The notes under the pieces are model-generated. The model did not search any database, was not told the origin of the DNA, and worked only from the letters and a program-made list of their open reading frames with translations. Both the position numbers and the translations under genes were made by a program. A stretch of 11,347 bases of DNA from a virus, in UHGV virus genome UHGV-1347074; one strand, given 5' to 3'. Positions 1-11,325 of this stretch are shown here, piece by piece. The stretch's first letter is position 1. Each line of letters begins with the position of its first letter.

Positions 1-57
1 ATATAACGAGCCCCTCCTAAGGGCTAGTTGCAGGTTCGATTCCTGCAGGGGACACCA
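1..57 (+). tRNA. argW: tRNA-Arg (anticodon CCU), 3' portion only; the 5' end lies upstream of the window
   Basis: Anticodon stem-loop agccc/CTCCTAA/gggct at 9-25 with anticodon CCT at 16-18; T-arm gcagg/TTCGATT/cctgc at 30-46; acceptor 3' strand plus discriminator and CCA ending at 57. Matches from memory the E. coli argW sequence, with one possible difference. Confidence 0.85.
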
Positions 58-217
58 TGAACACCTCCCACAAAGTCCAACTTAGTACGTAACTCATTGA
101 TTTTAATTCATACATCTTATTTTATTCGTCCAGTAAAGTGCCATTATTTCTAATGGAATCTATACATCTTTGCGTATAACATTGTGTATAACTGAGTTCG
201 ATCTTTTTTCTATACAC

Positions 218-1393
218 ATGCTGCTATCTGACATCCAAATAAAAAGAGCAAAACCGAAGGACAAACCCTATACGCTTAACGATGGTATGGGACTATCACT
301 CCTCATCGACACAGCGGGCAGCAAAGGCTGGCGTTTCCGCTATCGCTTTGCAGGTAAGCCAAAGATGATTTCCTTTGGTGTATATGGCGATGTGTCGTTG
401 GCACAGGCACGTACCAAACGTGATGAAGCGCGTTCGATGTTGGCCAAAGGGATCAACCCAAGTGAAGCCAGAAAGGCAGATAAGATTGCTTTGCAGTTCG
501 CACATGAGAACAGCTTTGAGTCTGTGGCCAGAGAATGGCACTCATCGAAAAAAGCCACCTGGTCAGAGGGGTATGCAAAAGAGGTTCTCAATTGTATGGA
601 AAAGGATATTTTTCCTTTTATCGGCCAGCGCCCAATTGAGCAGATTGAACCACTAGAGCTGCTAACCGTCCTGCAAAAAATAGAGAAAAGAGGTGCGCTA
701 GAGCAAACCAGCAAGATCCGCCGCCGTTGTGGTGAAGTGCTTCGTTATGCTGTTGCCACTGGCAGAGCAAAGTATAATTTTGCACCCGATTTAGCTATCG
801 CACTCAACAAACCTAAAACTCAACACTTCCCGTTCCTGACTGAAAGCGAGTTGCCCGAGTTCGTCAATGCTCTGGATAACTATCAGGGCAGTTTAGTCAC
901 CAAATACGCCACGCAGCTGTTGATGCTAACAGGCGTGCGAACAATTGAACTACGTGCAGCGGAATGGGCTGAGTTTGATTTAGATAATGCCTTATGGGAG
1001 ATCCCCAAAGAACGGATGAAGAAACGCCGCCCCCATCTGGTTCCGTTATCTACTCAGGCGATCAGCATCCTGAAAAAGCTGCAAGAAATAACTGGGAATT
1101 ACAGCCTCGTTTTCCCTGGGCGAAACGACGTCAGGAAACCAATGAGCGAAGCCAGTATCAACAAAGTGATAAAGCTGCTTGGCTATCATGGTCGGTTAAC
1201 GGGTCACGGCTTCAGGCATACCATGAGTACTATTTTGCATGAACATGGTTTTGAAAGCGCCTGGATTGAAATGCAGCTTGCGCATGTTGATAAGAACTCT
1301 ATTAGAGGGACTTATAATCATGCGCAGTATTTAGAACCGAGAAGAAAAATGCTAACGTTTTATAGCAACCTTATATATAAATCATATATATGA
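218..1393 (+). CDS. int: Tyrosine site-specific integrase, P4 family (about 392 aa from the first ATG)
   Basis: N-terminus from the ATG at 218 (MLLSDIQIKRAKPKDKPYTLNDGMGLSLLIDTAGSKGWRFRY...) matches the conserved P4-type integrase N-terminal domain. C-terminal catalytic region has HGFRH ... LAHVDKNSIRGTYNHAQYLEPRR (box II and tyrosine). The ORF-track start at 170 is a TTG and was not used. Confidence 0.9.
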   Translation: MLLSDIQIKRAKPKDKPYTLNDGMGLSLLIDTAGSKGWRFRYRFAGKPKMISFGVYGDVSLAQARTKRDEARSMLAKGINPSEARKADKIALQFAHENSFESVAREWHSSKKATWSEGYAKEVLNCMEKDIFPFIGQRPIEQIEPLELLTVLQKIEKRGALEQTSKIRRRCGEVLRYAVATGRAKYNFAPDLAIALNKPKTQHFPFLTESELPEFVNALDNYQGSLVTKYATQLLMLTGVRTIELRAAEWAEFDLDNALWEIPKERMKKRRPHLVPLSTQAISILKKLQEITGNYSLVFPGRNDVRKPMSEASINKVIKLLGYHGRLTGHGFRHTMSTILHEHGFESAWIEMQLAHVDKNSIRGTYNHAQYLEPRRKMLTFYSNLIYKSYI

Positions 1394-2443
1394 TCTTTTT
1401 ATATCCGTTAAAATAGTATCTACATCGGTAAATGTTATGTTTATACAATCAATTAACTCAAATACTTGCTCTTCAATAAGAATAAAATCATTTTTTGGTC
1501 CAGTACTAATTTTTATACCAAGATCCCCAACTTTCTCCAATAAACTAACCTGATGATTTGTGTAAATATATTTTCCTCCGGGCTCTGTTATCTCTCTATT
1601 TGCAGAAAAAACAACATCAGCTATCGCATCAACTTTTAGCTTATACGAAGAAGAAACAGTAACATCACCTTTCTTCGAAAGTGGGAATATTAAACTATAC
1701 CATTTATATATATTCACCTTGTCTGGAGAAATAAACTTTCGTTTGTTTATTTCTGCATTCATATAATCTCTAAACATATTTAGATGTGAAATATGATTTG
1801 TTAGATTACTATTTTTTACGCCAGCTTTATAAGTCAACAACGCTATTCCAATACCACCAACGGTGGTGATCAATGTAATCAACCATGCTATTGACTGAAG
1901 GATAATTGATATGCCATTAAATCTACCAAAAAAGTAAGAAACACACTTATCTGATAGGCAAAATTCTTTCACATACAGTTTTTCATTATAGATCGTAATG
2001 CATAGTATGATGAGACAAGAAATGATACCAAGCATAAAAATAGCAAGGATAGTAATAACCAAGACTTTTAGCTCTTTTTCTTTCCCAAAATCCCCCAAAG
2101 GTAATTTATTAACCAAAGAACTAGTAATTTTATAAATATAAATAATAGTAGTTTTAATGCTCTTTATTAAAGCTGAAGGAGAATTAAGAACAAAGCAATA
2201 CAATGTATTAGCTAAAAATTTAACTCGTATAAAAATAAAGCTTCCTCTAATCTTTACCTTCCTATATTTTCTTTTTAGTTCAAATACTATTTTTCTACCT
2301 TCATCTGTCCCCAGAAGAACTAATCCAATATGTGATACTATATCCCTTAAGCTAACTCCCACCCCAATAAACGCCTTATGAAAAGATGACAAACTGCGTT
2401 TGAGAGATTCATAATTAGATTTTATTTCAGCTAAGCTACCCAT
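1382..2443 (-). CDS. Predicted two-transmembrane-helix membrane protein, candidate retron effector (353 aa)
   Basis: Two long hydrophobic segments (VLVITILAIFMLGIISCLIILCITIY and ISIILQSIAWLITLITTVGGIGIALLTY) separated by a short loop. Its ATG shares one base with the RT stop (TGATG on the - strand), indicating translational coupling. Very AT-rich, like the RT gene. Confidence 0.75.
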   Translation of the reverse strand: MGSLAEIKSNYESLKRSLSSFHKAFIGVGVSLRDIVSHIGLVLLGTDEGRKIVFELKRKYRKVKIRGSFIFIRVKFLANTLYCFVLNSPSALIKSIKTTIIYIYKITSSLVNKLPLGDFGKEKELKVLVITILAIFMLGIISCLIILCITIYNEKLYVKEFCLSDKCVSYFFGRFNGISIILQSIAWLITLITTVGGIGIALLTYKAGVKNSNLTNHISHLNMFRDYMNAEINKRKFISPDKVNIYKWYSLIFPLSKKGDVTVSSSYKLKVDAIADVVFSANREITEPGGKYIYTNHQVSLLEKVGDLGIKISTGPKNDFILIEEQVFELIDCINITFTDVDTILTDIKRSYI

Positions 2444-3639
2444 CAGTATTTAACCTTTTGAAGACGATCTCTGAATCCTTTTTCAATCAATAAAAAACCG
2501 GGAGTTCTTCTTAAAATAATAAGATTATATAGTGTAAGATCATATTTTTTCTTGTAATAATCTTTTTTAGAGTTCCCACCTTTATAGGAGTTCTCTAAAA
2601 ATTTAATAGCCCTATCAATTTTAACAATATCTCTTTTTGCTGCCTTAGGCTGAATATCTTTTAGTCTTAATGATAGCACCTTATATTTATTGTGATTAAG
2701 CCTACCTAATTTGTTCACGCGCCCAACACATCTATTATACTCTATCCTATAGGCTACACTTGTTATTGAGTTATTTTTCTTTGCCAGTTTTTCTAAATTA
2801 TGCACAGACGCTCGAATACGTCCGACCTCATCAGAAGGTAAGCGTGGTTCATTAAATGAGATTCGTAACCCATGTACTTTTAATGATTCAGTTGATATAT
2901 TGTGTACTTGAGTTTTATCTTCATTTATAGGTAAATCTTTACCAGCAAGCATATCTTTAATATGATCTAAAATCTGATTCATATTGTAGTTAACTAATTT
3001 TGATGAAACTGTAATATCATCTACCAGTCTCGTATAGACTAATTTCTTCCTTTCTGCTCTATTTACAATGTCAGATTCAACATCAAAAAGACATAACGAT
3101 GCTATATAACTAGAGGTCAAAGCGCCCTGAACAATAGTGTCGTCATAACAGCATATATCAGTTAAGTACTCTAATGCTTCGCCTTTAAATTTTAAAACCT
3201 TAGAAAATATACTATATACTATATCTCTATGAATATTATCAAAAAAATTTTTGATATCTACTTTAAGTATTGTTTTTGCATTACAGTGCTTACGGGCACA
3301 AGCGATATAATGCCGCTCAATTCCTTTTTTTTTCTCATCTTTATTGGTTGGAACTGAGCCATAAATGTAATCTGGCCATAATATCAGCTCTTTAAAGATC
3401 CTATTGTTTATCCTTTTTTGAATACGCCTTATTAGCTGGTGTGGATCATAAACATCTCTAAGTTCACCATTTATTTTTTTTACTTGCTTTTTCTTGTATC
3501 TTTGGTGGGAAGGCATTGCAATAGCAGTTTTTAAATCTGCTAACGTAATATCCAAGCAAGAACTTAAAGATTGCAAAGATCTGAGAGATTGTGCACCAGG
3601 TTTTTTTATAGGATTACGGGCAACCATAATATCTTCCAT
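2443..3639 (-). CDS. Reverse transcriptase, retron-type (398 aa)
   Basis: RT motifs readable in the translation: ILKVDIKNFFDNI (motif A aspartate), ICCYDDTIVQGALTSSYIASL (motif B), YTRLVDDITVSS (motif C) and a downstream KVHGLRIS at the position of the retron VTG motif. Overall pattern resembles Ec86-type retron RTs from memory. Confidence 0.85.
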   Translation of the reverse strand: MEDIMVARNPIKKPGAQSLRSLQSLSSCLDITLADLKTAIAMPSHQRYKKKQVKKINGELRDVYDPHQLIRRIQKRINNRIFKELILWPDYIYGSVPTNKDEKKKGIERHYIACARKHCNAKTILKVDIKNFFDNIHRDIVYSIFSKVLKFKGEALEYLTDICCYDDTIVQGALTSSYIASLCLFDVESDIVNRAERKKLVYTRLVDDITVSSKLVNYNMNQILDHIKDMLAGKDLPINEDKTQVHNISTESLKVHGLRISFNEPRLPSDEVGRIRASVHNLEKLAKKNNSITSVAYRIEYNRCVGRVNKLGRLNHNKYKVLSLRLKDIQPKAAKRDIVKIDRAIKFLENSYKGGNSKKDYYKKKYDLTLYNLIILRRTPGFLLIEKGFRDRLQKVKY

Positions 3640-3960
3640 TCCATGAAATCAAAATTACATCCGGCCTCCCTCATACTCAAGTGGGCAAAAGAATAGGGTT
3701 GCTTTCGTCAAAAGCCCTTAGCAACTGCCCCTATTCTTTGACCGGACGCAATTGAGGACGGCTACAGCCCCATCGTTGCCGGCCAGGCTTTGTGGGGGTT
3801 CCGTTCCAGCCTATGCTACTGCATAGGCGCTCTCACTTTTCTGTTGCGAGAGCGGAAGCTAAGAAACTATAAACTTTGACTGCCACAGGCAAACGGAACG
3901 TTTGCGCGAAGCAGATATTACCATTGATGTTTCTAGTTTCAAGACTTAACTAGCATTTTT
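3640..3960 (-). ncRNA. Candidate retron non-coding RNA (msr/msd) upstream of the RT; boundaries approximate
   Basis: No ORF of 60 aa or more on either strand. Cluster of stable hairpins: 11-bp stem 3688-3698/3729-3739; 8-bp stem with tetraloop 3809-3816/3821-3828; 7-bp stem 3828-3834/3848-3854; 7-bp stem with GAA triloop 3889-3895/3899-3905. G+C is higher than in the adjacent RT gene. The a1/a2 inverted repeats could not be located. Confidence 0.35.
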
Positions 3961-4299
3961 CACATCACCTACCAAAATTGTAATGGACTGACCAAAAAGG
4001 CACTACACCGCACCCGCCTGCGGTTTTCATATCACTAAAATTTTTCAGTTGTGATTTTTTACAAACGATACCGCCAGCCCGCGCCCGTGCTGGGGATACA
4101 CTGCGAGGCAGGAACTGAAAAGAATGAAAAGAAATTCAGCTTTTTTCAGTTTTACTGTCCGTAGTATCTATGGCCTGAATACGCAACTCTATGATATTAA
4201 ATGGATAATTATTTTTAGGTGTGTGATTTTATGAAGTTTTGGAAACATGAAAAACATAACAAATTGAAAAATAATAATTTTATGTCCGTATAAACTGAA

Positions 4300-4340
4300 A
4301 TCCGGTGTTCAGGTTCCGGGAATGGATCGGCCATTCCCGA
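4300..4340 (-). terminator. Candidate transcription terminator downstream of the Ogr/Delta gene
   Basis: 9-bp perfect hairpin cgggaatgg/ccattcccg (4316-4340) just 3' of the stop at 4349 on the - strand, followed by a moderately U-rich stretch (AUUUCAGUUUAUA). The U-tract is not immediately adjacent, so this is a weak call. Confidence 0.3.
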
Positions 4341-4348
4341 CGCATACT

Positions 4349-4621
4349 TTACCCATTCTTTTGCGCAGCCAGCAGCAACTTTAAAGCCTTTTCCCGTTCC
4401 TCGGGTGGAATTGCATCAATTAGCTCTTTAACCCTCCCCTGCCCGTTCAGCGCGCTTGGACTAACGGAATGGGAGAAAGCAACATTCATCACAAACGAGT
4501 GACCGCACTCCACATTAGAGCAATAGCAGTACACATCGTACAGTTGTGGGTGTTTCCTGTTTGTTTTACCTATCCGCGCTACTGCCTGACATGTGGGGCA
4601 GTACATTCTCATCATCTTCAT
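4349..4621 (-). CDS. Ogr/Delta-family zinc-finger late-gene transcriptional activator (single-domain, about 85-90 aa)
   Basis: C-x2-C-x22-C-x4-C spacing (MYCPTCQ ... YCSNVECGHSF) as in P2 Ogr / P4 Delta. The start is ambiguous among several in-frame ATGs (4621 to 4606); homology favours MYCPTCQ. Confidence 0.85.
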   Translation of the reverse strand: MKMMRMYCPTCQAVARIGKTNRKHPQLYDVYCYCSNVECGHSFVMNVAFSHSVSPSALNGQGRVKELIDAIPPEEREKALKLLLAAQKNG

Positions 4622-4687
4622 CGTTCTGTGCCCTATACTGTTGCCCGCCAGAAGAAGGGATTTGACTCCCTACCTCTTGTTCTGAAC

Positions 4688-4880
4688 GTGTAACACTGGT
4701 AACACGTGTAACGCTATTGATTTAAAAGGATTTAATCTGTTACCAGTTAGCAAAATCAAGAGGTAACGCGTGGTAACACACCATTTTTTGTTACCTCTGT
4801 TACCAGTCAGTATTTTTGACTGGTAACACTGAAGAACCGTATCAGTAGCGGGTGTTACCTCTGTTACCAGTGTTACCTCA
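4688..4880. repeat. Iteron cluster, candidate replication origin (P4 ori/crr-like) for the adjacent primase-helicase
   Basis: At least 12 copies of GGTAAC(A/G)C / its complement TGTTACC in both orientations. An 18-bp direct repeat TGTTACCTCTGTTACCAG occurs at 4789-4806 and 4853-4870. An 11-bp perfect inverted repeat lies at 4799-4809 / 4817-4827. No ORF spans the region. Confidence 0.6.
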
Positions 4881-4903
4881 TATAAATAAGACTCACGCGA
4901 TAA

Positions 4904-7591
4904 TTACTCAGGTTCGGCGCTTCCCAGTACCTGTGTATTGAACTGGTACACACGTTTAAGCCCTATTTCTGGCAGGCGAATGCTGTTTTGCGTCCGGCCA
5001 TCTTCACCGGGTTTCAGCCAGCCCGCGTCCACACACAACCTGGCCACCTTACGCGAATCAAATCCCTTACAGATCTCCTTCCAGCCTGACGGGAGAACGT
5101 AGAACGTCACAACCGGCTCTGTCACGTTGTCTCCTTTATCGACTTTTCTGAATCCCATCATTGAAACAGGCCGGTTCCTGTCGTCATTCCAGTCAGCAAA
5201 CCGACTGAACTGATTACGCGTCATGAAGTCCCGTACCTGTTCAAGTGCCGCTTTATCTTCCTGATTAGCTGTATGGCCCCGGTCAGCCATCCATGCAGCC
5301 AGACAACTTTGAGCGGCACGAAAGGCCTCTCCCTCCGGCCATCCTGTGATGCCCGCTTTTGTGGCCAGCTCCCCGGCCATAGCAACCAGAGCAAAACGGG
5401 TAACAGCCCGGCCAACCTGATTCCCGGCATTTTCCGGCGTCAGCCTCCGGGTGTACTCTTTCAATAAGGCTTTCGCCTGGCTGGTCAGTTCCGGCAGATC
5501 AGCGGTCAGGCAATGCAGCCAGTCGCGGAATGGTGCACCATGATAATGCGCTACATGCTGCTCAAGATGCTCAGCCAGGGTTTTCCCGCTACTGAAGCCA
5601 TGAAGTTCTTCAAACACGCCATACTTGCCCGAATCGCTTGGGATCTGGATCATTCTGACCTCAACCCCGGCATACGTACGTTCCCCGGCGCTTGCCGCAT
5701 GTTCTACCAGTGACAGTTCCCCGGTGGACAGAAACAACAGATTCCAGCGGTTGGTTTCCCTTACAGAACCATCTGTTCTGGCTCTGGCTTTGCCCTGCCC
5801 GTTAGCCAGCATATAAGCGATATTCCCCGCCTCCCTGCCGTCAACCTCCCGGATTTCATCCAGCATCAGCGTGGCATCATTGCGGCGGCTCGCCGTTCCT
5901 TCTAAGGCATTCCCCGTCGCCCGCCACGTATGCCAGAAATCTGTTCCACCACATACTGATGCAGCCACTTTCATCGTCGTGGTTTTGCCGTCCGTCGATT
6001 CCCCTTTGAGGTGATAACCTCCACCGCCGATACCAACCAGTTTCAGAAGGGGGGCAGCAAATGCCAGGCTCACCGCAAAGGCCAGACGGGCATTCTTTAT
6101 GCAGTAACGGCCAAGATTTTCACGCCATTCCTCTGATGTACCGCTGACACGAAAATCACGCCCCTGCACGCTCGATGTTTGTAAGATGACTGACTGGGCT
6201 TCGCGCCCTATCACTTCATCCTGGAGAACGTAAACCCCGCCGTGCCAGCCCGTTTTATTTACACAGGTAACTTTTCTGTCCGGTTTACACAGCGAGATAT
6301 ATTCCATCAGGAATGCTCTGGCCATACCGTTAATGTTGATGTAAGAAAGCCCGTTAACCAGCAGAACGCGGCGCAGTTCTTCCCCGCTGCCACCCAGCAT
6401 CTCCATCGGCATTGCCCATTTACGGCTGTTTCCGTTGGTATCTTCCCATTCCAGCAAACGCCCGTAATTACTCCCATCAGCATCACTGGTGATTGCCGTC
6501 ACCCGCAACGGGCTGCAAATTTTGATATTGCGTATCTCCGTATCACCATCAGACTTATTAACCAGCTTGTCGTACCACAAATATTCTTTTGTCAGCCGGA
6601 ACCCTTCTGGTAAACGGGTCTGCCCTTTGCCATGCAGCGTCATTTCTTCACGAAAGGCATCTCTCGCCCGTTCTTTCCCCACTTCCTGCCGATAGTCATC
6701 CCAGTCAGCCTTATGGCGTACCGGAGGGAGCGTTACCCAGCCATCCACCGCTTTGGCGGCTTTCTCTGCCTGAATACGCCCGGTGTTTTCTTTCCCGTCA
6801 GCCAGATCATTATCTCCGGCCAGAATGATCCGGGTTTCCGGCCAGCGTTTTCGGATCTGCTCCGTCACCTTCAGTAAATTGGTGGCAGCGACAGCCGCCA
6901 CGATCCATCCTTCAGTCAGCAGACTGACGGTAAGCGCCGTGGCAAAACCCTCAGTGATAATCACCTGTTCAGGTGTTTCAGCGGGTATATCGGTCAGGGC
7001 AATGAATGCGCCAGACAGCTGGCTACCGGGCAGCAGACTTTTATCCCCGTCAGGATTGATAAGCTGACCACCGGTAATATTCCCGGAAATATCCGTCAAC
7101 GGCAGCAGTAATGAACCGGAGGAAAATGTTATTCCGGCCAGATTCAAAGGTTGTGACAGCAAGGGAAGTGAATACCCGTGTAAGCCCTTGTTTGTCAGAT
7201 AGACCGGCTCACCATTGCAGGACTGCTGTCTGAGTCTGGTATATCGCTCCGCACCCGCTTCTTTTCCTGTGGCCTTTTTCCTAGCGGGCAAAGCGGGCTT
7301 CTCCTGTATTTCTGGTAATGCAAGCGCCTCAGATACCATCCCGGCGGCTTCTTTTATCTTTCTTCCTGTCACCAGACGAACCAGATCAAGACCATCGCCA
7401 TGACCGCACTGATTACAAAACCACGTCCCACGCCCCGCTTTATCGTCCAGTCGAAAGCGATCTTTGCCACCACAGGCAGGGCAAGCCCCATGATGTCCTG
7501 CGGACGGTACTTTGATACCTAATGCTGACAGGATATAAGGCCAGCGCCCAATCGCAGCCCCGGAAATAGTGGATACAGACAGTGTTTTCAC
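4904..7591 (-). CDS. Alpha-type DNA primase-helicase (895 aa): zinc-binding domain + TOPRIM primase + P-loop helicase
   Basis: N-terminal CPACGGKDRFR ... WFCNQCGHGDG zinc-binding motif; TOPRIM-like ITEGFATA ... ILAGDND; Walker A GESTDGKT. GTG start at 7591 preceded by AGGAGG (7-nt spacer) and overlapping the upstream gene's stop (GTGA). Confidence 0.9.
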   Translation of the reverse strand: MKTLSVSTISGAAIGRWPYILSALGIKVPSAGHHGACPACGGKDRFRLDDKAGRGTWFCNQCGHGDGLDLVRLVTGRKIKEAAGMVSEALALPEIQEKPALPARKKATGKEAGAERYTRLRQQSCNGEPVYLTNKGLHGYSLPLLSQPLNLAGITFSSGSLLLPLTDISGNITGGQLINPDGDKSLLPGSQLSGAFIALTDIPAETPEQVIITEGFATALTVSLLTEGWIVAAVAATNLLKVTEQIRKRWPETRIILAGDNDLADGKENTGRIQAEKAAKAVDGWVTLPPVRHKADWDDYRQEVGKERARDAFREEMTLHGKGQTRLPEGFRLTKEYLWYDKLVNKSDGDTEIRNIKICSPLRVTAITSDADGSNYGRLLEWEDTNGNSRKWAMPMEMLGGSGEELRRVLLVNGLSYININGMARAFLMEYISLCKPDRKVTCVNKTGWHGGVYVLQDEVIGREAQSVILQTSSVQGRDFRVSGTSEEWRENLGRYCIKNARLAFAVSLAFAAPLLKLVGIGGGGYHLKGESTDGKTTTMKVAASVCGGTDFWHTWRATGNALEGTASRRNDATLMLDEIREVDGREAGNIAYMLANGQGKARARTDGSVRETNRWNLLFLSTGELSLVEHAASAGERTYAGVEVRMIQIPSDSGKYGVFEELHGFSSGKTLAEHLEQHVAHYHGAPFRDWLHCLTADLPELTSQAKALLKEYTRRLTPENAGNQVGRAVTRFALVAMAGELATKAGITGWPEGEAFRAAQSCLAAWMADRGHTANQEDKAALEQVRDFMTRNQFSRFADWNDDRNRPVSMMGFRKVDKGDNVTEPVVTFYVLPSGWKEICKGFDSRKVARLCVDAGWLKPGEDGRTQNSIRLPEIGLKRVYQFNTQVLGSAEPE

Positions 7592-7998
7592 AGCAGCACC
7601 TCCTGACCTTCCGGCTTCACAAATTCAAAACCTTCGGGTAGTTCGCCATCAGGTGCACCGAAAATAATATCCCGGTAAACCTCACGCATCTCTGTGACAC
7701 CAAAAACTGACAGGCGAATATTTTCTGACATAAAGCCCGGTTTAAGCATTTTTTCCAGTTTCTCTGCGGCCAGTATGCAACCAGCATCAGCCCCAAACTC
7801 ATTCACCCACGGCATTTCAATATGGTAAATAATATTGCTCACCACTTTTTCGTGGGTGAGTTCTATTCGTTCGCCATCTTCAATATAAACAGGTTCATTA
7901 TGAACACGCTCCATTAAGGAAATGAATGCATCAGCAATGTAGTACCGTAAGACTGCTGTTCGTAAAGCATGCGCCTTTAAATTTTGATTATTATTCAT
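7588..7998 (-). CDS. Hypothetical protein (136 aa from the ATG at 7998), first gene upstream of the primase
   Basis: ATG at 7998 preceded by GGGAGAG; start overlaps the stop of the upstream 78-aa gene (ATGAATAA) and the stop overlaps the primase GTG. The longer TTG-initiated ORF to 8058 was not used. Confidence 0.65.
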   Translation of the reverse strand: MNNNQNLKAHALRTAVLRYYIADAFISLMERVHNEPVYIEDGERIELTHEKVVSNIIYHIEMPWVNEFGADAGCILAAEKLEKMLKPGFMSENIRLSVFGVTEMREVYRDIIFGAPDGELPEGFEFVKPEGQEVLL

Positions 7999-8227
7999 CG
8001 CGCATCTCTCCCTTAATTGTGCTGGTTTCCTTAACAACGCCATCAAGTTGTTCGGCAATACAGGCCACTAAAGCCGCAGCGCCTTCCGCTGAAACAGTTC
8101 TCGCTCCATTCACTGTGGGAACGGACAGGACCTCTGCAAGAAACTCACTGGCCAGTGCCGCCCGTAACAGACGACTCTCACCCAGTTCGCTCAATATGCA
8201 GCCTTGCTTAAAATTCATGGATTTCAT
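7991..8227 (-). CDS. Hypothetical small protein (78 aa)
   Basis: ATG at 8227 preceded by GGAGGTG with a 5-nt spacer; overlaps the upstream gene stop (ATGA) and the downstream gene start. No recognisable motif. Confidence 0.6.
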   Translation of the reverse strand: MKSMNFKQGCILSELGESRLLRAALASEFLAEVLSVPTVNGARTVSAEGAAALVACIAEQLDGVVKETSTIKGEMRDE

Positions 8228-8427
8228 GCAACCACCTCCCCGGCACTTTTCACAGGGATGTGGGCAGCAAAGCTCAGGATAAATTCAGTGGCAAGTTTAA
8301 GGCGTGCAGCATGCTCGCAGTCTGCGATTACACGCACAGGACGTGGACGGGCATCACGGTCTGTACGGCGAACAGCCAGAAAGACAAAGATAAATTCAGG
8401 GTGAGATAAAGCAGGGACTGTAGCCAT
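8224..8427 (-). CDS. Hypothetical small protein (67 aa), first ORF of the replication operon (positionally analogous to P4 kil, function unknown)
   Basis: ATG at 8427 preceded by GGAGG with an 8-nt spacer. The ORF track extends this frame to 8814 (196 aa), but that extension crosses a repeat- and hairpin-rich leader and looks non-coding. Confidence 0.5.
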   Translation of the reverse strand: MATVPALSHPEFIFVFLAVRRTDRDARPRPVRVIADCEHAARLKLATEFILSFAAHIPVKSAGEVVA

Positions 8428-8429
8428 AA

Positions 8430-8725
8430 TGGCAACCTCCGTTAGATAGCGGGTAACGCTACCACCGGAGTTCCTACGCTCATGGGTGGTAGCCCAGACG
8501 GGGGTAGGAATACCGGCTCTAACGGATACCGGCCAGCCCGAAAGCTGCCCCGCCTGGACTACCATAATTCTGATGATGTGGCGTAAAAAATAAAAACATG
8601 CAGTCAGCCACCACACCATAAATTTTAGGTGAGTCAAAGCTACGACACAAAAAAACACGCCTGGCGCGTGTTGTGTCGCCGTTAGATTACACGGGTTCCT
8701 ACGCCCGGCTGCCGATTTTGCGGCA
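8430..8725 (-). ncRNA. Candidate structured leader / immunity RNA region (P4 CI-RNA-like; Rfam C4-type), boundaries approximate
   Basis: Direct repeats CCGTTAGAT...GTTCCTACGC at 8439-8479 and 8679-8708. An internal segment (8499-8516, containing GTAGGAA) is largely complementary to both copies. Strong hairpins at 8458-8466/8485-8493 and 8643-8678. Confidence 0.3.
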
Positions 8726-8733
8726 ACCTTTAA

Positions 8734-8763
8734 ACTATATCCCGCGCATTCCTGGTGAGGCAA
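8734..8763 (-). promoter_or_regulatory. Candidate sigma70 promoter for the leader and replication operon
   Basis: On the - strand, TTGCCT (-35; + strand 8758-8763), an 18-bp spacer, then TATAGT (-10; + strand 8734-8739). Predicted start near 8726, just upstream of the first repeat copy. Confidence 0.3.
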
Positions 8764-8866
8764 GAAATTTATAACCGAAAACTGAACATTGCCTGGATTA
8801 ATTAACGCTGGCATGCTTAAGCCTCTGCTTAAAAATAGTTCTTCATTTTTCCTGATGCTGTAAACG

Positions 8867-8888
8867 AGACCCGCCTCTGAGCGGGTCT
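8867..8888 (-). terminator. Candidate terminator hairpin downstream of the capsid-homolog gene
   Basis: Stem agacccgc/gcgggtct with a 6-nt loop, 14 nt past the stop at 8902. The U-tract on the - strand is weak (CGUUUACAG). Confidence 0.3.
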
Positions 8889-8901
8889 TTCTGTCGCGAA
8901 G

Positions 8902-9906
8902 TCAATCAGCAAACGTCAGGGCGCTCTCATCAACAGCCGCGTACAGTTCAGGTTCACCGAGTGCATAGCCTTCATTGCGCAGGTAGGAATGTACGTATTC
9001 ACTGTTTTCATCATCAAACTCAGCACGAAACCACCGTGTTATCGCCTGAGTGTAAATATGCAGATTATTCAGCGTCGTTACTGCCAGACGCTTACCCGGC
9101 ATAAACGGGGGAATAAACGCAAAGCGGCCAGCAACAGAACTTGTAGCCATCTGTGCAGCATTCACATCAGCCGGGCGGTCTGCGGCATTAAATAACTTCA
9201 GGCGTTGATGTGCTGCCAGCTCTGCCCCAACCAGAACAACCAGACGGGGATCTTCACGAAACTGCTCAGCAATAAGCTCAGTAATCAGATGGTTGGCCAT
9301 CGCATCAATATTTTTCCAGGTGCCAGTCTCTCCCAGCGTGACAGGCTCAGAGATGATTTGCTTTCCGTTCCCGTAGGCTTTCGCCAGTGCATGCCAGCCA
9401 ATATTGACATCCTCGCCTTTTTTATTGATTTCCGGGTTTGTAGTATTTGCAATCGACACACCATTGAAACCGACCCGCAGCATGTCCAGCGCATATGCCT
9501 GGGCAAAAAAGCTCTCAACCGTTTTCTCAAACCCATCCGGCACGCCGGTATGGTAAATATGAGACATATCGGAATAGCTGATCCGGGCGCAGGTATCCGT
9601 CTCTGTCAGAAAGAACTCCGTACCATTGATTGCCATTTTTTTGTGGAAACGGCCACCATCCACACGTCCGGTATGCAGTTCACTGGCACCAATATTGACT
9701 GCATTACCTGACACGGCGTTAACATCACGTAGCGTGATATTTTTAATAAGCCACCCGGATTCCAGAATTGACGTACGCAGTATATTTTCAGTGGGTTCGC
9801 TTAATGCAAAGCGTCTTTTTGATTCCTCCTGATAGTTAGTGCCAGTAACGAATTTATTATGATAACGACGTGCTGCGTCCGGCCTTTCAGTTTTGAAGGC
9901 ATACAT
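8902..9906 (-). CDS. P2 GpN-like major capsid protein homolog (334 aa)
   Basis: Several blocks align by eye with P2 gpN as recalled from memory: GFNGV, DV.(I/V)GW, EDPRLVVLVGAELAA (vs EDPDLVVIVGRQLLA) and TTLNNLHIY (vs TKLENLSIY). ATG at 9906 preceded by GGTGA. Confidence 0.7.
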   Translation of the reverse strand: MYAFKTERPDAARRYHNKFVTGTNYQEESKRRFALSEPTENILRTSILESGWLIKNITLRDVNAVSGNAVNIGASELHTGRVDGGRFHKKMAINGTEFFLTETDTCARISYSDMSHIYHTGVPDGFEKTVESFFAQAYALDMLRVGFNGVSIANTTNPEINKKGEDVNIGWHALAKAYGNGKQIISEPVTLGETGTWKNIDAMANHLITELIAEQFREDPRLVVLVGAELAAHQRLKLFNAADRPADVNAAQMATSSVAGRFAFIPPFMPGKRLAVTTLNNLHIYTQAITRWFRAEFDDENSEYVHSYLRNEGYALGEPELYAAVDESALTFAD

Positions 9907-9929
9907 AGTTTTTTCACCTTTTTTAGTAT

Positions 9930-10790
9930 TTAAGAAAAGATTTTATTTTTGTACTCAGTAACCCGATTGTATTTCATTACATGCTCAACATAATCCCGGT
10001 CACTTACGACTGAACGTAATACATAATTATCTGCTCGATAGTACTCCCTGTAAGCCATAGCTCTTGCCATTCCACCGTTATTTAATACATAACGATCAGT
10101 TGGAACGCTACAACGGCTAATAATTTCATTCACGGAATCAGACAAAGATTTGAGTGCGTCTGTAATAAATTTAATATCACGGACAACGTCACCGTCATTA
10201 AATACAGAAATAAAATCAGCAGGGATCTGGCCGGATTGAGGAAATATGTTCAGTAAACGCTTCTCGACTCCCTTACCAATGTAGTTCACTTCATCGGCCA
10301 GTACGCCCGGTAAAAGCTTGATCGTGCTCAGTCGGCTATGTTGCTCATTCAGCCGGGAAACAGCCAGATGGTAACACCGTTCAGCATCCGCTCGTTCAGC
10401 ATGCCCCGTTTTATTCGTTTTGGCTTCAGCAATGCTACTGACGCCGTTTTTTGAGAATGTGCTTTTCCATGCAACTTCCGCATTTGTCACTTCACGCTGC
10501 CGGAAAGATAACTCTTCCTCTTCCTGACGACACAACTGGGCATAACGGCTTAGGAGCAGGTTGATCTCATTCGCCACAGCTTCCGTATCAGGTACTGTTA
10601 ACCCCGTAAGTGAATACAGCTTTTCACCTTTAGCACGCAGCTTATTCAGTGAATAGATTTCGATAATACGCACAATACAGGCTGTGTCGCTATGAGTTTC
10701 TTTAAATGGTCTTACTTTGTAACTATCTAACACCGACACATGTTCGTTCTTAATTGATGCCAATTTTTTCTTAAAAACATTGTCAACCAT
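9930..10790 (-). CDS. Hypothetical protein (286 aa), immediately upstream of and co-oriented with the capsid homolog
   Basis: ATG at 10790 preceded by GAGGTG; 23-nt gap to the capsid gene. Lower G+C than the flanking capsid and primase genes. No motif recognised; not similar by eye to P2 gpO. Confidence 0.8.
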   Translation of the reverse strand: MVDNVFKKKLASIKNEHVSVLDSYKVRPFKETHSDTACIVRIIEIYSLNKLRAKGEKLYSLTGLTVPDTEAVANEINLLLSRYAQLCRQEEEELSFRQREVTNAEVAWKSTFSKNGVSSIAEAKTNKTGHAERADAERCYHLAVSRLNEQHSRLSTIKLLPGVLADEVNYIGKGVEKRLLNIFPQSGQIPADFISVFNDGDVVRDIKFITDALKSLSDSVNEIISRCSVPTDRYVLNNGGMARAMAYREYYRADNYVLRSVVSDRDYVEHVMKYNRVTEYKNKIFS

Positions 10791-10807
10791 ATATTTGCCA
10801 CCTCAAT

Positions 10808-11035
10808 TTAGGAGTTTAATTTTCTATTGAGAATATTCTTCTCTATCCATTCATTAACTTCATGCTCCACCCATGCAACAGAACGAGAACCGATAGAAAC
10901 TTGGTTCGGAAATTCATCATTCTTTATCTTTAGATAAATTGTTGACTTGGGTAAGCCAGTCAAATTAATCACTTCTGATATTCTCAGAAGTCTATATCTT
11001 TTTTGGGGTGCGTTTTCCCGAGGCAATAAGCTCAT
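10808..11035 (-). CDS. alpA: AlpA-family prophage regulatory protein (HTH; excisionase/transcriptional regulator-like), about 75 aa
   Basis: Pattern RLLRISEVINLTGLPKSTIY ... FP ... G.RSVAWVEHEVNEWI matches the AlpA family. ATG at 11035 preceded by GAAGGA; the ORF-track start at 11050 is a GTG five codons upstream. Confidence 0.8.
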   Translation of the reverse strand: MSLLPRENAPQKRYRLLRISEVINLTGLPKSTIYLKIKNDEFPNQVSIGSRSVAWVEHEVNEWIEKNILNRKLNS

Positions 11036-11145
11036 GGCTATGTCCTTCACATTAGATATTTATACTAAGACTTAATTAGTCTCTATTGGGTGTATATATA
11101 CTTGCACAGAAGAATTAATACGTAAAGAATGACACTTTCAAACTT

Positions 11146-11162
11146 ATTCAAATAATTTGAAT
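11146..11162. promoter_or_regulatory. 17-bp palindrome (candidate operator) in the AT-rich region upstream of alpA
   Basis: ATTCAAAT-A-ATTTGAAT, perfect 8-bp arms around a central base, followed by tandem 13-bp near-repeats AATAATGGTGAAT / AATAATAGTGAAT. Confidence 0.25.
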
Positions 11163-11290
11163 GGTAAATAATGGTGAATAATAGTGAATGTTAGGGAATA
11201 TTACTGAGTGACAATCTTTGCCAGTGCTTGTTAATCGCTGATAACGATGAAATTTGATGAACAAAATATGTAACAATTTGTAAATTAAAA

Positions 11291-11325
11291 GGCTGGGCTG
11301 GGCTGGGCTGGGCTGGGCTGGGCTT
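11291..11325. repeat. Pentanucleotide simple-sequence repeat (GGCTG)6 plus one imperfect unit
   Basis: Six perfect tandem GGCTG units at 11291-11320 followed by GGCTT; read directly from the sequence. Confidence 0.9.

Follow-up and report, generated by a model that had tools for sequence, protein, structure and literature searches.

The virus genome UHGV-1347074, whose whole stretch of 11,347 nucleotides (nt) is referred to below as the window, carries an AT-rich cassette on its minus strand at 1330–3973 (28–33% GC, against about 50% in the backbone), between the integrase gene and the rest of a P4-like phage satellite. A sigma-70-like promoter, a structured non-coding RNA (ncRNA), a reverse transcriptase (RT) gene and an overlapping gene for a membrane protein follow one another in the cassette, and we consider it highly probable that they form a complete type IV retron of the Ec48 (Retron-Eco6) family, which is carried as satellite cargo and would act through RecBCD-guarding abortive infection, as inferred from Ec48. 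Ec48 itself was reportedly described by Mao and colleagues in 1997. The features of the cassette are the following, with coordinates given on the window.

1330–3973, minus strand: variable cassette (retron operon), delimited by blastn against a related Escherichia coli satellite and by GC content
3915–3942, minus strand: sigma-70-like promoter from a promoter scan, with -35 TTGAAA (3942–3937), a 16-nt spacer and a TG-extended -10 TAATAT (3920–3915)
3653–3908, minus strand: predicted retron ncRNA (msr-msd precursor) of about 256 nt, from homology to the Ec48 ncRNA, covariation and fold
2443–3627, minus strand: predicted type IV retron RT, 394 amino acids (aa) from the ATG at 3627; the open reading frame (ORF) is open from the ATG at 3639 (398 aa, 2443–3639)
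1382–2443, minus strand: predicted effector membrane protein, long form of the Ec48 family, 353 aa, from NCBIfam, PADLOC and Pfam
2084–2443, minus strand: N-terminal extension of the effector, residues 1–120; the family models begin at residue 121–126
1835–2062, minus strand: first transmembrane helix (TM1, residues 128–146, 2006–2062), loop and second transmembrane helix (TM2, residues 185–203, 1835–1891)

An earlier note, made from the sequence alone, had placed an AT-rich insert at 1382–3960 between the integrase and the remainder of the satellite, and the borders now drawn by blastn are nearly the same; the GC content is 0.27–0.35 over about 1350–3450 and about 0.44–0.58 in the integrase gene and the primase region. 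The note had also described an RT with retron-like motifs, a stop codon overlapping the start of a 353-aa protein with two central transmembrane (TM) helices, a hairpin-rich non-coding stretch upstream and, overall, a layout of the Eco6 type. Each of these points is borne out by the analyses given below, and the search with profile hidden Markov models that it had proposed for both proteins returned a type IV retron RT and an Ec48-family effector.

The best PADLOC match of the RT is RT_IV, with 603.6 bits (E 4.1e-182) over model positions 6–385 of 386, about 390 bits above the score on the type V model. The runners-up are RT_V (216.5 bits, E 1.6e-64) and RT_VI (179.2 bits), which correspond to the other members of RT clade 3, namely Retron-Sen1 (Se72, type V) and type VI retrons such as Retron-Vpa2, and the match to Pfam RVT_1 (83.9 bits) is well above the cut-off of 29.6. 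The protein contains the motifs KVHGLRI, with VHG for VTG, and CARKHC, with C-A-x-x-H for N-A-x-x-H, together with the catalytic LVDD; VHG and a substituted N of NAxxH have been described as outlier features of RT-Eco6 (Simon et al.), and Ec48 shares both these oddities and the RT clade with the window protein. Its sequence is 54% identical to the RT of Ec48 and 53% identical to the RT of the related E. coli satellite. From its profile matches and motifs, we assign the RT to the type IV group of clade 3.

Could the enzyme instead belong to a non-retron class, such as the group II intron maturases, the diversity-generating retroelements (DGRs) or the abortive infection (Abi), unknown group (UG) and defence-associated RT (DRT) enzymes, with the membrane protein as unrelated cargo? 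The RT does match TIGR04416 of the group II introns (42.6 bits, cut-off 300), Drt3a (40.3 bits, cut-off 200) and Drt2 (26.2 bits, cut-off 390), but these matches are far below threshold and of the weak kind expected of any RT domain, whereas each of the 25 best PADLOC matches is to a retron RT model. Furthermore, the Rfam scan of the window detected no DGR template or variable repeat and no intron RNA family, and the membrane protein, whose translation is coupled to that of the RT, scores above the cut-off of the Ec48-effector model. We therefore regard a non-retron origin as extremely improbable, and the grouping with group II intron or Abi-type RTs that the earlier note had considered was not seen.

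The database homologues of the RT begin at the ATG at 3627, which also has the better Shine-Dalgarno-like sequence (GGAAG, judged by reading). At the other end of the gene, the RT stop and the effector start share base 2443, a 1-nt overlap, and the overlap of the two genes matches the description of type IV loci by Mestre et al. The effector scores 217 bits on the NCBIfam equivalog NF038235 (retron_Ec48_2TM, cut-off 65) over residues 126–340 and has an E-value of 2.4e-87 on PADLOC 2TM_IV over residues 121–353, and its precomputed Pfam family is PF28197 (Retron_Ec48_antiviral). The exact protein sequence is present in NCBI on 40 contigs from K. pneumoniae under the name “retron Ec48 family effector membrane protein.” Variants with 99% identity occur in Salmonella and Citrobacter, partial cluster members were found in Enterobacter, and the effector is present in 79 index blocks from Klebsiella, Salmonella, Citrobacter and Enterobacter.

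The core of the effector is 43% identical to the Ec48 effector over 218 aa, and both proteins combine two TM helices with a helical C-terminal domain. Kyte-Doolittle hydropathy, averaged over 19 residues, peaks at 3.05 for residues 128–146 and at 2.17 for residues 185–203, and equivalent peaks are present in every homologue. In Ec48 they are located at 10–28 and 65–83, in agreement with a published deletion, delta3–85, which takes out both TM helices (Millman et al., bioRxiv 2020.06.21.156273). The AlphaFold2 model, based on an alignment of 41 sequences, has a mean predicted local distance difference test (pLDDT) score of 82, with helices in the TM region at 123–153 and 178–233 and an all-helical C-terminal domain with pLDDT above 90. 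A Foldseek search of this model against the PDB gave nothing below an E-value of 0.25, the matches being to generic long-helix proteins such as Vipp1/PspA.

The sequence upstream of the RT contains about 330 nt without ORFs. The start of transcription can be inferred near 3908, and in most of the related loci compared a -35/-10 pair is placed at the same distance from the first hairpin, hairpin A. To examine the stretch, we aligned 20 sequences taken from the regions upstream of the RT in the Ec48 locus (L002), in the E. coli satellite (L001), in 15 type IV loci from Kosakonia, Pseudomonas, Marinobacter, Oceanimonas, Thioalkalivibrio, Variovorax and others, and in IMG/VR prophages. L002 was recognized as Ec48 by its RT (GRPYVTLN...LASLKPL) and its RNA (CAGCGAGGCCCCACCGTCGTCAACT...ACTACGATGGTGCCGTAGCCGAC), all of which agree with the primers that Kong et al. 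used for Ec48 (PMC8563936 supplement). The elements of the window RNA, which are named after this comparison, are given here in the order of transcription.

3889–3905, minus strand: hairpin A (GCAAACG-TTC-CGTTTGC), apex GCG-NNN-CGC, from covariation
3858–3887, minus strand: 5' strand of the long-range duplex R/P/Q, with R at 3887–3885, P at 3880–3874 and Q at 3865–3858; Q ends in ...TTAGC
3829–3853, minus strand: hairpin B (GCTCTC...GAGAGC), from the minimum free energy (MFE) fold
3810–3827, minus strand: hairpin C (CCTATGC-AGTA-GCATAGG), from the MFE fold
3756–3807, minus strand: hairpin D (apical part 3797–3768) with its basal stem (3807–3801 / 3761–3756), from the MFE fold
3653–3753, minus strand: 3' domain, with helix Y (3753–3740 / 3666–3653), helix X (3739–3729 / 3698–3688) and hairpin Z (3685–3668, conserved loop TTGAGTATG)

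The order of the elements and their motifs are shared with Ec48 and 18 other type IV loci. Across the 20 loci, pairing is kept at 95.3% for the 39 base pairs modelled in A, R, P, X, Y and Z, and 33 of the 39 show changes on both sides. Column shuffles gave 74.6% pairing, with none of 500 reaching the observed value, and partners slid along the alignment gave 34–43%. Compensatory changes were seen at five of the seven pairs of helix A (95% paired), 10 of the 12 of helix Y, eight of the nine of helix X and two of the three of helix Z, while helices R and P are 98–99% paired with all eight pairs changed on both sides. When all column pairs were scanned blind, Y, X, P and A alone came back. The alignment is poor around Q; RNAduplex places this helix identically in all 20 loci, and it was found by eye in 16. 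The stretch 3909–3645 folds with an MFE of -100.4 kcal/mol (z -3.8 against 200 dinucleotide shuffles, none of which was as stable), and the MFE structure holds A, B, C, D, X, Y and Z. When the whole window was compared with Rfam at E-values of up to 1, neither a retron nor an msr family was matched, the only matches being C4, isrK, c4-a1b1 and a tRNA fragment elsewhere. As judged from homology, covariation and fold, the hairpin-rich stretch is a conserved structured RNA homologous to the Ec48 ncRNA.

The C-G/G-C pairs at the apex of hairpin A are invariant in the 20 loci, and the motif TGCNGCA follows this hairpin in the order common to all of them. The partners of the R/P/Q strand are found in the apical region of X (R3' 3702–3700, P3' 3713–3707, Q3' 3722–3715). 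A U-rich linker separates Q5' from hairpin B, at the place of which the related loci have a hairpin with GC...GCG closing bases and another stem sequence (from the alignment, by eye). Likewise, the enterobacterial relatives have a hairpin of variable sequence at the position of hairpin C (by eye). A purine-rich stretch is located between hairpins C and D, an AG at 3763–3762 (A147/G148) is invariant in the 20-locus alignment A4, and an 8-nt linker leads to the 3' domain. Ec48 has the same architecture, with hairpins A–D, helices X, Y and Z and the R/P/Q duplex, but the stems of B, C, D, X and Y differ in sequence from those of the window, and hairpin D measures 30 nt plus a basal stem in the window against 23 nt in Ec48.

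R/P/Q is the sole conserved long-range duplex, and for this reason we take it as the best candidate for the a1/a2 stem that would prime reverse transcription. A G ends Q5' in most loci, though not in all, and an invariant GGCNG is located directly 5' of Q3'. Other pairings were considered and rejected. A pairing of sequence upstream of hairpin A with sequence after Y falls on the conserved -35/-10 elements and gives stems no better than those of shuffles, and for repeats flanking the whole RNA the shuffle p-values are roughly uniform (p = 0.74 for Ec48). The Ec48 stem GGTATGCGGCA / TGCCGTAGCC and the branching G that follows it do not qualify as a family feature, the stem being mismatched in L001, L004 and L029 and the G being an A in L001, L003, L004, L007 and L029. 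Finally, neither strand of helix Y is followed by a conserved G in the geometry that a1/a2 would need.

Hairpin D appears to be the positional counterpart of the Ec48 hairpin that has been treated in published work as a replaceable msd stem-loop. Judging by the primers that Kong et al. published (PMC8563936 supplement), the donor goes into the loop of the Ec48 hairpin CACCGTCGT-CAACT-ACGATGGTG, which is the equivalent of D; Ec48 was the one of the four retrons in that study without editing. The “donor location 130;136” given for Eco6 by Khan et al. would fit the D loop only if the ncRNA of these authors starts 16 nt upstream of the trimmed sequence. The multicopy single-stranded DNA (msDNA) of Ec48 has a length of 48 nt, or 45 nt by sequencing (Palka et al., PMC8989520), and 45–48 nt copied from R/P/Q in Ec48 would end at the foot of D, which fits the reported length.

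One hypothesis is that the type IV ncRNA is a larger, pseudoknotted RNA than the canonical a1-msr-msd-a2 arrangement, in which the 5' strand R/P/Q pairs with the apical part of a 3' domain (X/Y/Z) whose end closely precedes the start of the RT. Copying of X5'/Y5' by the RT, or their removal by RNase H, may then remodel the leader of the RT-effector mRNA and thereby couple msDNA synthesis to expression of the operon, which echoes the translational de-repression recently described for type VI retrons. The sequence TTTTGAT just after helix Y (3646–3652) is a second possible partner of P5' (GTCAAAG), besides the one at 3707–3714. It is present in the window only, and the MFE fold pairs P5' with TTTTGAT instead of with its partner in the X loop; this could be another conformer or a coincidence.

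The conserved loop of hairpin Z, TTGAGTATGGG (window 3668–3685; L002 9605–9640, minus strand), holds the ATG that is used in the literature as the start of the Ec48 RT (MGRPYVTLN..., with the numbering D216/D217). The same ATG is out of frame with the RT in the window and is followed by a stop after three codons in L001, and the NCBI start of Ec48-family RTs lies 15 codons downstream of it. The comparison suggests that the motif is conserved as RNA and not as a start codon, and the evidence from the Z loop on the start of the Ec48 RT may be of use to retron specialists.

The proposed mechanism follows from homology to Ec48. Transcription from the sigma-70-like promoter would yield the ncRNA of about 256 nt, the type IV RT and the translationally coupled membrane effector, and the RT would start a short msDNA at the 2'-OH of a guanosine within the ncRNA, with the DNA remaining joined to this RNA. 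The effector is assumed to be held inactive before infection. Phage proteins that disable RecBCD, for example lambda Gam or T7 gp5.9, would unleash it, the membrane would be damaged and the infected cell would die or stop growing before phage release, an abortive infection that would protect the clone with the satellite and its helper prophage. Defence by Ec48 needs RT catalysis and the TM helices of the effector, and inactivation of RecBCD by phage anti-RecBCD proteins frees the effector and compromises the membrane (Millman et al., bioRxiv 2020.06.21.156273). The Gam trigger has since been confirmed for Eco6 (bioRxiv 2025.10.22.683967).

Several points weigh against a reading modelled so closely on Ec48. 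The formation of msDNA, the defence against phages and the RecBCD trigger are all extrapolated from a system with 54% (RT) and 43% (effector core) identity, and even for Ec48 a simple toxin/antitoxin picture is not established, as the Eco6 effector is not toxic when over-expressed alone (Palka et al., PMC8989520). No canonical a1/a2 pair with an invariant branching G was located across the loci. The stem GCGGCA/TGCCGT looks canonical in Ec48, but it does not hold in L001, L004 and L029, and its nucleotides covary with R3' instead in L029 and L009 (UGC/GCA to UGU/ACA), which supports helix R. With R/P/Q as a1/a2, X5'/Y5' would be copied and synthesis would stop at the foot of D in Ec48, which contradicts the donor placed by Kong et al. 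in the D loop. Lastly, neither a homologue nor a fold match could be detected for the effector's N-terminal extension, so that its role is a guess.

This extension distinguishes the protein from the Ec48 effector, which has 235 aa against 353 aa in the window, about 120 residues fewer at the N-terminus. It has no counterpart in Ec48 or in the other family members of 235–250 aa, and it is common to 13 homologue clusters of 345–353 aa with 50–64% overall identity, from Cedecea, Serratia and metagenomes. Since the frame is kept open in DNA of about 28% GC and the extension is retained in these 13 clusters, the 120 codons appear to be real coding sequence and no chance ORF. Among nine near-identical effector variants, seven of nine substitutions fall within residues 1–100, and the frame is never broken. 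The extension is basic (20 K+R against 7 D+E), with borderline hydropathy at 26–44 and 68–86, and AlphaFold2 models it as long helices at 4–43, 48–87 and 89–113 with pLDDT of 67–82. A phmmer search with residues 1–126 against 1.84 billion representatives gave no hits, and no Pfam family was found for the extension.

The long-form relatives (345–353 aa; Cedecea neteri, Serratia ureilytica and metagenomes, P0031–P0044) align with the window protein over their full length. Their N-terminal 110 residues or so are barely conserved until the motif IPLGDFG(R/K)(D/E)KE, which ends the extension directly before TM1. Several of them have two clearly hydrophobic segments in the extension, with Kyte-Doolittle values of up to 2.3 and 2.76, where the window protein is borderline, and these relatives may have four TM helices. 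Our guess is that the extension is a cytoplasmic or membrane-surface module for regulation or partner binding.

These differences raise the question of whether the cassette is an Ec48-family retron with another trigger or another output, in which the N-terminal arm and the different msd hairpin retune sensing, for instance towards some other phage protein of recombination or anti-nuclease function, or membrane attack. The RecBCD-guarding mechanism would then not carry over from Ec48. We consider this possible but somewhat unlikely. The identities of 54% for the RT and 43% for the effector leave room for such a change, the long-form N-terminus is specific to a subfamily and fast-evolving, in some members with two extra strongly hydrophobic segments, and the sequence of hairpin D is unrelated to its Ec48 counterpart. 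Moreover, Vpa2 of type VI, also in clade 3, requires Beta and Exo, not Gam (bioRxiv 2025.10.22.683967). However, the type IV Eco6 and the type V Sen1 are both triggered by Gam despite their greater divergence (bioRxiv 2025.10.22.683967), which suggests that the RecBCD-linked trigger is conserved in that part of clade 3, and the effector core of the window protein is intact from TM1 through the C-terminal domain, with pLDDT above 90. Two further propositions, that the long-form effector with its helical arm forms a subtype of separate function, controlled or triggered in its own way, or that the ncRNA couples msDNA synthesis to the operon as outlined above, are put forward tentatively, and even taken together we think them unlikely.

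We therefore return to the reading of the cassette as a complete Ec48-type retron. By the sequence-level criteria that could be applied, it belongs to the type IV family throughout, as a divergent relative of Ec48 with 54% identity for the RT and 43% for the effector core. PADLOC, NCBIfam and Pfam (PF28197) already recognize it, public records already name it, and apart from the N-terminal arm of about 120 residues it is an ordinary member of the family. Truncated copies of the RT (225–371 aa) and of the effector (76–259 aa) are present in some Klebsiella assemblies, and hairpin Z of the window, compared with the relatives, shows one broken pair or an enlarged loop, as could be expected if the cassette were a decaying or inactive remnant carried as passive cargo by the satellite. 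Yet both ORFs are of full length relative to the family models, LVDD is present, all other ncRNA helices of the window are 100% paired, and the identical effector is found in many genomes across four genera with no frameshifts; decay thus seems very unlikely.

The surrounding satellite contains the following features.

1–54: 3' part of a tRNA gene, from Rfam
170–1393, plus strand: tyrosine integrase gene (int), from Pfam Phage_integrase, Phage_int_M and Arm-DNA-bind_3
4349–4621, minus strand: ogr/delta zinc-finger gene, from Pfam Ogr_Delta
4904–7591, minus strand: DUF927/Toprim primase gene, from Pfam
8482–8740, minus strand: C4-type and isrK RNAs, from Rfam
8902–9906, minus strand: P2-family major capsid protein homologue, 334 aa, from Pfam Phage_cap_P2 (E 9e-67)
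10808–11050, minus strand: AlpA regulator gene, from Pfam

Over 11,322 bp the window matches a contig of a Klebsiella chromosome (GCA_014526175.1) with 100% identity; in this contig, yfdC/mlaA/fadL adjoin the element. A sister element, L001 (NZ_LR778152.1; proteins WP_180344603.1 and WP_180344604.1), is an E. coli satellite at the equivalent tRNA-Arg site, between yfdC and dsdC. By blastn, window positions 1–1329 are 95.3% and 3974–11324 are 97.5% identical to L001, and between these borders there are only patches of 66–71% identity, inside the RT and effector genes. The slot of L001, located like that of the window between int and the delta/ogr gene and filled in the same orientation, holds an RT and a “retron Ec48 family effector membrane protein” that share 53% and 43% identity with their window counterparts. 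The two satellites also agree in retron type and ncRNA architecture, but their cassettes are not detectably similar by megablast and the effector of L001 is of the short, 235-aa form. The cargo thus differs between otherwise near-identical satellites. Because L001 has a backbone of 95–97% identity and another Ec48-family retron in the slot, we conclude that 1330–3973 is exchanged as a unit between near-identical satellite backbones, including the last 21 or so codons of int. The homology to L001 breaks at 1329, inside the 3' end of int, and each retron cassette supplies its own version of these last codons; the 3' ends of int and of the effector gene overlap convergently by 12 bp (1382–1393).

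The cassette is cargo in the integrase-proximal variable slot of a P4-like satellite at a Klebsiella tRNA gene. The earlier note had assigned it to the integrase-proximal defence hotspot of such satellites, and the different Ec48-family retron in the slot of L001 agrees with this, as does the work of Rousset et al. (2022; PMC9122126), who describe retrons both in the P2 hotspot and, for P4-like satellites, in the hotspot beside int. The location differs from the psu-int hotspot of P4 as defined by these authors, since the slot is between int and the ogr/delta gene, and the satellite encodes a P2-family capsid homologue. A Pfam scan of the window proteins revealed no recognizable homologue of sid or psu, and a P2-family capsid homologue without sid/psu is unusual for a “P4-like” element; it may be another way of redirecting or supplying capsid assembly.

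Elsewhere in the database records, a megablast search with the cassette gave no match in 5,426 complete E. coli genomes or in 50,697 phage records, and a more permissive (“distant”) blastn search found E. coli Ec48-family loci at about 66% identity. The same cassette is located at the extreme end (1–3359) of a K. pneumoniae record of 461,902 bp labelled as a plasmid by NCBI (CP196645.1), where the RT is clipped to 292 aa by the start of the record. This may be an assembly or circularization artefact, or a chromosomal fragment mislabelled as a plasmid.

Some further observations concern the backbone. A GC-rich hairpin at 3998–4024 with T runs on both strands, resembling a bidirectional terminator, belongs to the conserved sequence between the delta/ogr gene and the retron promoter, and it probably insulates the cassette from satellite transcription. 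A 196-aa ORF at 8224–8814 on the minus strand, relatives of which are annotated as Icd-like or Phage_ASH, overlaps RNAs on the same strand: a C4 antisense RNA (81 bits), isrK (71.8 bits) and a c4-a1b1 target element (8482–8569, 8650–8727 and 8688–8740). The ORF may have been called in part spuriously; alternatively, the RNAs lie within its leader or coding region, as in the c4-icd-ant arrangement of P1/P7.

Among known systems, Retron-Eco6 (Ec48) from the P2 prophage of E. coli EC93 is the nearest in organization, with the same order of promoter, ncRNA, RT and overlapping effector. Both retrons reside in hotspots of the P2/P4 phage-satellite system, but the carriers and hosts differ, a satellite in Klebsiella in one case and a P2 prophage in E. 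coli in the other. In the P2 prophage hotspot of EC93, a second, divergent “RNA-directed DNA polymerase” gene (514 aa; L002 10139–11683, plus strand) is located directly upstream of the Ec48 retron, which places two RT-based systems side by side. Within clade 3, type V shares the Gam trigger with the type IV Eco6 (bioRxiv 2025.10.22.683967), and the effectors are of other kinds, a cold-shock DNA-binding protein in type V and a helix-turn-helix protein with a small toxic peptide within a hybrid RNA in type VI. The window retron also has a counterpart in its setting. A P4-like satellite, the retronphage phiR73 with Retron-Eco3 (Ec73), which Inouye and colleagues reportedly described in 1991, likewise carries its retron cargo next to the integrase at a tRNA gene, but Ec73 is of type II-A1, with an RT from another clade and a ribosyltransferase effector.

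Our results provide a covariation-backed structure for the type IV retron ncRNA, an RNA without an Rfam family; the structure comprises a conserved 3' domain and a long-range duplex resembling a pseudoknot. The long-form effector subfamily offers a natural experiment on the control of the membrane effector. P4-like satellites carry retrons of the Ec48 type as exchangeable cargo that circulates among Klebsiella, Salmonella, Citrobacter and E. coli, and this bears on the prediction of phage susceptibility, for instance when phages are used therapeutically against Klebsiella.

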